Virus record (IMG/VR): IMGVR_UViG_2695420687_000017
Length of the DNA stretch: 3,410 nt
Direction: 5' to 3' (one strand)
DNA from: a virus
Taxonomy: Duplodnaviria; Heunggongvirae; Uroviricota; Caudoviricetes
Shown: positions 2,140-3,410 of the stretch, piece after piece
Layout: every line of letters begins with the position of its first letter
Numbering within the stretch: the stretch's first letter is position 1
The notes under the pieces: model-generated
Database searches by the model: none
Seen by the model: only the letters and a program-made list of their open reading frames with translations
Told to the model about the DNA's origin: nothing
Made by a program: the position numbers and the translations under genes

Positions 2140-2442
2140 TTCACCTCCTGCGGCGGTTCTGGTAGCTGCATCCAGTGGGTTACCTCTTTGAGATACAGGT
2201 CTTCGCCATCACCGTCATCCCAAGTGGGCTTGCCATCATTAAACCAGTCGCCATATACGCCGACCTGAGTGTTGGGGATGTTTGGTGGGTAGTTGTTTTT
2301 AAAGTCAGCTGCTAACACATAGCATTGTCGCTCTCCCATTTCAGGCATTCGCTCACTACAGCTTATCCAACCATCCGGAGTTGCCGGATAGTTGCCATTC
2401 ACAAGGTCAGCTCGAACATATAGCGTGTCATCATGGTGTTCT
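2136..2442 (-). other. Phage-derived DUF551-like domain segment forming the 3' ~100 codons of the chimeric ORF
   Basis: Motifs [20 protein letters not shown] and [11 protein letters not shown] match my recollection of the conserved start and end of the DUF551 domain found in lambdoid early-region proteins. The native N-terminus and start codon of this phage gene are not present. Family assignment is from memory, not a search. Confidence 0.5.
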
Positions 2443-3410
2443 TGCGGCCCGACATTCAGAGGCGTTTCGCCGTTCGCCAGAGGATTGCCGTCCAGCGCCA
2501 CCGACCAGTGTAGAATTTCGTTATCGCTATGACGGAATAAATATTCACTGGTCACTTCGAGTGTTCGTTCAAGCAAGCGAAACTGGAAAAACTGCTGCGC
2601 GTGTTTCGCTTCCGTTAGTGCCGGATGCGGCGTGCGATCGGCAAAGACCAGGCCGTTCATACAGAACTGGCGGTCATTAGGCGTATCGCCAAAATCACCG
2701 CCGTAAGCTGACCACGGATGACCTTCTTCATCATATTTAATCAGCGACTGATCCACCCAGTCCCAGACAAAACCGCCTTGTAAACGCGGATATTGACGAA
2801 ACGCCTGCCAGTATTTAGCAAAACCGCCGAGGCTGTTGCCCATCGCGTGGGCGTATTCACAAAGGATCAGCGGACGCAACTCGCCGGGCATCGAAAGCCA
2901 TTTTTTAATCGACCATTTCGGCACTGCCGGGAAGGGCTGATCTTCATCCACGCGCGCGTACATTGGGCAGATAATATCGGTTGCCGAGGTGTCTGCTCCA
3001 CCGCCTTCATATTGTACCGGACGGGAAGGATCGACGGATTTAATCCAGCGATACAGCGCGTCGTGATTAGCGCCGTGGCCCGATTCATTACCCAGAGACC
3101 AGATAATCACGCATGGGTGATTGCGATCGCGTTGTACCATCCGCGTGACGCGTTCGCTCATTGCGGGTAACCAACGTGGATCGTCTGCCAGGCGATTCAT
3201 CGGCACCATGCCGTGGGTTTCAATATTGGCTTCATCCACCACATACAGGCCGTAGCGGTCGCACAGTGTGTACCACAGCGGATGGTTCGGATAATGCGAA
3301 CAACGCACGGCGTTAACGTTGTTCTGCTTCATTAGCAGGATATCCTGCACCATCGTCTGCTCATCCATAACCTGACCGTGCAGAGGATGATGTTCATGAC
3401 GGTTAACGCC
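2136..3410 (-). CDS. lacZ: Chimeric ORF: internal beta-galactosidase (LacZ) fragment fused in frame to a C-terminal phage DUF551-like segment; 5' end outside the window
   Basis: Continuous minus-strand reading frame from the window edge ([31 protein letters not shown]...) to TGA at 2138-2136. The first ~323 codons in the window match E. coli LacZ as I recall it (roughly residues 353-675), including SLGNESGHG (acid/base Glu461) and [12 protein letters not shown] (nucleophile Glu537), with scattered substitutions relative to K-12. After ...[10 protein letters not shown] the sequence ([43 protein letters not shown]...[15 protein letters not shown]) has no LacZ similarity. Confidence 0.85.
2141..2148 (-). 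promoter_or_regulatory. Shine-Dalgarno GGAGGTGA serving the 27/28-aa hydrophobic ORF
   Basis: Plus strand reads tcacctcc at 2141-2148; the minus strand is GGAGGTGA, perfectly complementary to the 16S rRNA 3' end, 4 and 7 nt upstream of the two candidate ATGs. Confidence 0.4.
2443..3410 (-). pseudogene. lacZ: lacZ fragment: truncated after about LacZ residue 675 (within domain 4); domain 5 and C-terminus absent, N-terminal part outside the window
   Basis: LacZ homology ends at codon caa (Gln) at 2444-2442. K-12 LacZ continues GKQLIELPELPQPESAG..., whereas this sequence continues with unrelated phage-like residues. A LacZ lacking its C-terminal ~350 residues is not expected to be an active enzyme. 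Confidence 0.85.

Follow-up and report, generated by a model that had tools for sequence, protein, structure and literature searches.

An in-frame junction between lacZ and a phage DUF551 gene in a draft Escherichia albertii contig is probably a product of contig construction

Phage arm, lacZ fragment and the junction between them

The window, by which we mean the whole stretch of 3,410 nucleotides analysed here, carries all of its genes on the minus strand and consists of two parts. An earlier note on this DNA had proposed that the sequences on the two sides of the junction be compared separately; done in this way, positions 2-2440 were found to be phage DNA that includes a DUF551 gene, and positions 2441-3410 to be lacZ. 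The features are given below, with positions of an E. coli prophage locus (L001) for comparison.

1..54, minus strand: prophage/host boundary inside mlrA (yehV); bases 2-54 are a phage-borne replacement of the mlrA 5' end
75..1361, minus strand: tyrosine integrase, 428 aa; Pfam Arm-DNA-bind_2 and Phage_integrase; integrase in E. coli records
1395..1649, minus strand: excisionase (DUF1233 / XisR), 84 aa; Pfam PF06806, E = 2e-29; annotated xisR
1668..1802, minus strand: hypothetical phage ORF, 44 aa; RefSeq hypothetical protein at the same place; no Pfam match
1806..2048, minus strand: DUF4222 protein, 80 aa; Pfam PF13973, E = 9e-16
2136..2440, minus strand: 3' part of the phage DUF551 gene, comprising two bases of codon 96, codons 97-196 and the stop; 100% identical to L001 6135-6439
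2440..2441, no strand: junction, a blunt phage-to-lacZ switch, in frame, without microhomology and without N
2441..3410, minus strand: internal lacZ fragment of E. albertii type, comprising codons 354-676 and the first base of codon 677; reaches the contig end

Over its 2439 nt the phage arm (window 2-2440) is 100% identical, without gaps, to the prophage in mlrA (yehV) of E. coli O145:H28 strain RM12761, and the same 100% match was found in E. coli O145:H28 strain RM13516. Many Stx-phage-like prophages, VT1-Sakai and BP-4795 among them, match it at 96-99.9% identity; the phage record of BP-4795 begins at window position 17. On the host side, mlrA of locus L001 overlaps window positions 1-54, and the first mismatch to this locus is found at window base 1. 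When the source contig was compared with L001 over 4025 nt, all 173 mismatches were located from window position 1 outward into the host, where identity to E. coli drops to approximately 89% (mlrA, yohO, yehW). Judged by these identities, the prophage is inserted at the usual mlrA site in a non-coli Escherichia host. Contamination with E. coli DNA as a source of the phage part is not supported, since at the normal att position the phage arm continues unbroken into mlrA of E. albertii type. The predicted MlrA proteins of the two hosts start at different places: the 233-aa protein of E. coli records starts inside the phage, while the 215-aa protein on the E. albertii contig starts just outside it (3359-3412 in L094, the contig locus described below).

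Among the phage genes, the DUF4222 protein is extremely common (13,775 index blocks). The gap between the DUF551 and DUF4222 genes is filled by a 28-aa hydrophobic ORF (2053-2139, minus strand), the ATG of which overlaps the DUF551 stop (ATGA); it is unannotated in RefSeq NZ_CP007133.1 and may encode a small phage membrane peptide. The intact DUF551 gene of L001 (6135-6725) encodes 196 aa, and in related E. coli prophages the gene is likewise intact and followed by ordinary early-left phage genes. Although cut, the gene in the window retains a complete C-terminal DUF551 match (PF04448; 68/68 profile positions, E = 6.5e-20), just as the intact protein of 196 aa does. Matches of other genomes to the window end at 2396, 2397, 2403 or 2440. 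In E. coli CP178336.1 (L088 4007-5913), the same int-xis-DUF4222 arm is accompanied by a DUF551 gene of 163 aa that is preceded by P1-like tail-fibre and baseplate genes, not by early-left genes. Together, these endpoints and this layout indicate that the N-terminal half of DUF551 genes is a natural mosaic boundary.

A base-by-base three-way alignment of the window, the phage parent and two lacZ relatives placed the switch from phage to lacZ at exactly 2440|2441. The earlier note had described an in-frame lacZ/phage junction with a breakpoint at about 2439-2447, which is hereby confirmed and located to the base. The phage and lacZ parents share zero bases on either side of this point, so that microhomology is absent; in the alignment their similarity around it is at chance level, no flanking direct or inverted repeats were found, and no ambiguous bases are present. 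On the minus strand, the frame runs without interruption from 3410 across the junction and closes with the stop codon 2138-2136. The LacZ sequence ends with Q676 (E. coli numbering, Met = 1), encoded at 2444-2442 as had been read earlier; this residue is followed by the junction codon GAA (Glu), with G from lacZ and AA from phage, and then by residues 97-196 of the 196-aa phage DUF551 protein. The natural continuation of lacZ from codon 677 onward would read GGTAAACAG..., and that of the DUF551 gene in codons 95 and earlier would read ...CAATC. The junction is an abutment of two unrelated sequences and not a chance resemblance. A genuine but divergent LacZ C-terminus running through 2136-2442, named in the earlier note as the finding that would speak against a junction, is rejected: E. 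albertii LacZ continues differently (GPQ-GKQLIELPELP), and the 305 nt downstream are 100% phage and hold the full DUF551 domain. With the orientation given, the frame is kept with a chance of one in three, and its being open thus says nothing about selection, a view already taken when the junction was first described.

The lacZ part is of E. albertii type. Window positions 2441-3348 are 98.8% identical (11 mismatches in 908 nt) to lacZ on Logan contig L003, which was assigned to E. albertii on the basis that its PrpE, PrpD, PrpB and PrpR are exact matches to Escherichia albertii proteins. The best identity to E. coli was 89.2% (approximately 5340 complete E. coli genomes with lacZ), and the best plasmid lacZ reached 88.5%. 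At the protein level the fragment displays 95% amino acid identity to residues 354-676 of E. coli LacZ. Most of the GH2 TIM barrel is present (Pfam Glyco_hydro_2_C, E = 5e-119), and the motifs NESGHG and CEYAH can both be read in the translation; their glutamates, E461 and E537, respectively, are the acid/base and nucleophile residues of LacZ. Only the first 47 of 87 Pfam profile positions of domain 4 are retained, and domain 5 (Bgal_small_N) is absent. At the other end the five-domain chain, which in a complete LacZ starts with the N-terminal sugar-binding and Ig-like domains, is incomplete as well, with residues 1-353 in neither the window nor the contig; because the record does not extend upstream of LacZ residue 354, these N-terminal 353 residues and the promoter are assumed, not seen. 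The same applies to the whole chimera proposed earlier (LacZ 1-675 plus about 100 phage residues), of which LacZ residues 354 to 676 and phage residues 97-196 are visible. Domain 5 of LacZ completes the active site and the tetramer, and the missing half of domain 4 is needed together with domain 5 for both. Lacking these parts, the predicted ORF as written, if it exists, would be devoid of beta-galactosidase activity. The DUF551 domain of the hybrid would be complete.

Other sequences bear on the state of lacZ in E. albertii. On the E. albertii contig L003 (1-3871), lacZ directly adjoins prpE, and lacY, lacA, cyn and cod genes are lacking. Several E. albertii LacZ entries (among P0293-P0304) are truncated at other internal points; in one (P0294) 23 foreign residues are followed by LacZ from about residue 664, and in two others (P0295 and P0296) the break falls at about R600. 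This collection suggests an ongoing decay of E. albertii lacZ. A further odd hybrid of the lac region was seen in a raw-read assembly: a Logan contig of 5105 bp carries a predicted protein of 647 aa (P0003) in which LacI-family domains are followed by a GH2 TIM barrel, and which is 95% identical to the LacZ part of the window.

The patchwork contig that carries the window

The window is the terminal 3.4 kb of a draft E. albertii contig, CDRK01000089.1 (11,342 bp; assembly GCA_000936005.1; locus L094). Window position w corresponds to position 7930 + w of this contig, which places the junction at 10370|10371. The contig stops 2 nt beyond window position 3410, and its lacZ piece thus comprises only 972 nt.

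Comparison with E. coli revealed that the contig is composed of four pieces, lacZ' | prophage-mlrA-yehW-yehX' | dpaL'-ygeY-hyuA' | gss'-yghU-hyb, which map to separate, distant E. coli loci and are contiguous in none of the 5426 complete E. coli genomes. Each piece is 1 to 4 kb long, every boundary lies in the middle of a gene, and no IS or repeat is found at any boundary. At the second boundary, only the last 18 codons of yehX are left, and they abut dpaL (ygeX) from codon 190, followed by ygeY; at the third, the first 198 codons of hyuA meet the first ~357 codons of gss, followed by yghU and hybGFED. Ambiguous bases occur at these two boundaries and nowhere else in CDRK01000089.1. The yehX'|dpaL' join reads NNNGNTGNNNANTGGCAGNATN (L094 4998-5019; CDRK01000089.1 6324-6345), and the hyuA'|gss' join reads NNNNGN (L094 7563-7568; CDRK01000089.1 3775-3780). 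When the first and longer of these zones was aligned to the E. coli counterparts of both flanks, which are otherwise unrelated, the called bases inside it mostly matched the natural continuation. This is the pattern of conflicting read sets laid over each other, and it marks the yehX'|dpaL' and hyuA'|gss' joins as false rather than as rearrangements. By this reading of its ambiguous bases, CDRK01000089.1 is misassembled in at least two places. YehW, YghU, HybF and HybE are exact matches to proteins named E. albertii; the host pieces are thus all from E. albertii, which points to one genome wrongly ordered and not to a foreign contaminant.

Origin of the junction

We searched for a second occurrence of the junction. 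No place in the 5426 complete E. coli genomes covers 2440|2441, the junction is absent from the INPHARED phages and from the GTDB species representatives, and exact 32-mer and 20-mer searches of IMG/VR revealed no second copy. The JGI metagenomes contained no 32-mer match; thirteen 20-mer matches were all due to chance, with unrelated flanks. Among 5.8 billion protein clusters, no protein spanning the junction was detected with either the 424-aa ORF or a 107-aa peptide centred on the junction, the sole match with 96% coverage (P0405) being an ordinary DUF551 protein, and the reciprocal fusion DUF551(1-95)-R-LacZ(678-1024) was not found either. In the cluster searches with the ORF and with the reciprocal fusion, none of the 120 LacZ matches listed for each exceeded approximately 770 aa, compared with approximately 1024 aa for full-length LacZ; the word-based candidate step seems to favour fragments, and these searches may be less complete than they appear. 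The 424-aa partial ORF has an exact match in one record, CDRK01000089.1 itself, and is absent from a collection of 15 billion proteins; the 410-aa ORF that starts at an internal ATG has no exact record, and no mention of the accession was found in the literature. For a junction that is possibly confined to a single strain, such negative searches are weak evidence.

The best explanation, to which we assign a probability of about 0.8, is that lacZ|DUF551 is a chimeric join from library preparation, assembly or scaffolding and not a structure of the chromosome. Either a chimeric library fragment would have been formed, or small contigs would have been placed end-to-end by the assembler or scaffolder; a separate short lacZ piece of the same strain would in this way have been appended where the prophage contig happened to stop, and the open frame across the join would be a coincidence. 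Misassembly had been raised in the earlier note as an alternative and is now the favoured account, since the contig carries two other joins of unrelated loci with an N-riddled consensus. The lacZ|DUF551 join is the third boundary in a contig with two visibly conflicted ones, it is unique in the collections searched, and the appended lacZ piece is shorter than 1 kb and ends at the contig end. We infer that it has the same origin as the two N-riddled joins. The complete lack of microhomology fits a blunt ligation of library fragments or the plain abutment of contig ends.

Several points run counter to an artefact. The join contains no N, and if N stands for read conflict, it may have consistent read support; moreover, lacZ is dispensable and decaying in E. 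albertii, so that a real disruption would be tolerable. The route to a false join is a further point against it. A shared k-mer is normally required before a graph assembler connects two sequences, and its absence here means that a physical chimeric molecule or a scaffolding step would be needed. Graph misassembly at a shared repeat was rejected, as the parents share no bases at the join and local repeats are lacking.

The earlier note had favoured an illegitimate deletion that fused a prophage early gene to a chromosomal one, which does not fit the arrangement of the loci. At the E. coli locus the DUF551 gene points in the same direction as mlrA and runs against the osmF-yehYXW operon. On the K-12 map we take mlrA to be on the plus strand and lacZ on the minus strand, approximately 1.85 Mb apart. 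DUF551 and lacZ would accordingly lie on opposite strands, and with this orientation a co-directional fusion requires an inversion or a transposition, not a deletion. A simple deletion is thereby ruled out by gene orientation and by distance, with the geometry drawn from the E. coli locus and the K-12 map on the assumption that E. albertii is syntenic.

The strongest competitor to a false join, though unlikely in our estimate, is a real homology-free rearrangement in one E. albertii strain, in which the segment from lacZ to the mlrA prophage was inverted or one of its ends transposed. In the case of an inversion, double-strand-break repair without homology would have joined two breaks, each located after the first base of a codon, and would have generated LacZ(1-676)-E-DUF551(97-196), with an inactive LacZ part, together with the reciprocal DUF551(1-95)-R-LacZ(678-1024), both in frame. 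The strand relations are indeed those expected for one end of an inversion (E. coli locus and K-12 map), and the join is clean, N-free and in frame. Relaxed selection on E. albertii lacZ, as indicated by the lack of lacY and lacA and by the other truncated LacZ entries, is compatible with such an event, as is the frequency with which the N-terminal part of DUF551 serves as a mosaic boundary in natural prophages. Against this stands a coincidence: the rearrangement would have to be positioned approximately 4 kb from two conflicted, false joins in an 11 kb patchwork contig, which is why the artefact is favoured. Furthermore, the lacZ piece amounts to just 972 nt before it stops at the contig end, neither the reciprocal product nor a second occurrence was present in any collection searched, and microhomology is absent. 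On the K-12 scale the inverted segment would measure approximately 1.85 Mb and lie asymmetrically about the terminus, and would presumably leave the replichores unbalanced as well. If the rearrangement were true, it would constitute a large homology-free inversion with a prophage breakpoint in E. albertii that inactivated an already dispensable lacZ, a modest addition to prophage-associated genome rearrangement and not a new kind of system.

We consider it improbable that a host lacZ fragment was captured in the non-essential early-left region of the prophage by illegitimate recombination during phage replication. The strain would then carry an intact lacZ elsewhere in addition to a copy of approximately 1 kb, and the contig would break off at the far side of the duplication; its end after 972 nt of lacZ could indeed be the edge of a two-copy repeat, and mosaicism is pronounced in this part of the phage. 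Neither INPHARED nor IMG/VR contained a phage or viral contig with E. albertii-type lacZ or with the junction, however, and a capture leaves the two other joins of the contig unexplained. Nor does specialised transduction provide a route: in that process host DNA abuts att, whereas int and xis lie here between att and lacZ, and an aberrant excision of this type was rejected for its wrong geometry. An engineered lacZ fusion, cloning-vector remnant or reporter phage, suggested by the classic reporter design of an in-frame lacZ hybrid, has a negligible probability and is excluded for a standard K-12 reporter: the allele is not essentially identical to that of K-12 (at most 89.2% to approximately 5340 E. 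coli genomes and 88.5% to plasmids, versus 98.8% to E. albertii), reporters have the target at the N-terminal side and retain the C-terminal end of LacZ, the reverse of the topology seen here, and vector or transposon sequence is absent.

With the join regarded as false, the real content of the window is most likely ordinary, namely a lambdoid, Stx-phage-like prophage of an E. albertii strain, represented by its left arm and inserted in mlrA, and a misplaced lacZ fragment. The junction exists in the deposited record, whereas the organism itself most likely does not have it. It serves mainly as a warning that the stitching of contigs can create an in-frame "fusion gene" in a public draft genome. 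The tell-tale signs are located just outside the window, with the contig end 2 nt away and the N-riddled joins 2.5 and 5 kb away.

Comparison with known systems

LacZ translational reporters (Mud-lac, lambda placMu, pRS vectors) share with the window an in-frame hybrid ORF that contains LacZ. Such reporters consist of K-12 lacZ minus its first codons, fused downstream of the target. In the window, by contrast, an E. albertii allele (89% identical to E. coli) is positioned upstream and lacks the C-terminal third. The specialised transducing phages that carry lac (lambda plac, phi80 plac) resemble the window in that host lac is joined to lambdoid DNA without homology. Aberrant excision yields host DNA that is contiguous with the att site, whereas the window has int, xis and three further ORFs between att and lacZ, and the prophage resides in mlrA and not beside lac.

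The large inversions bounded by prophages in enterohaemorrhagic E. coli have in common with the window a breakpoint in a lambdoid prophage, and the strand relations would fit an inversion spanning the terminus. There the recombination is homologous and takes place between similar prophages or IS copies, while the partners in the window share no sequence and a second endpoint was not found in our searches. In comparison with chimeric contigs and misjoins of short-read draft assemblies, which arise from ligation chimeras in the library or from false scaffolding links, the join in the window differs in being N-free and in keeping the frame. It shares with them the abrupt switch between loci that are not neighbours and have no common sequence, the position near a contig end, the presence of other conflicted joins in the same record, and the occurrence in one assembly only.
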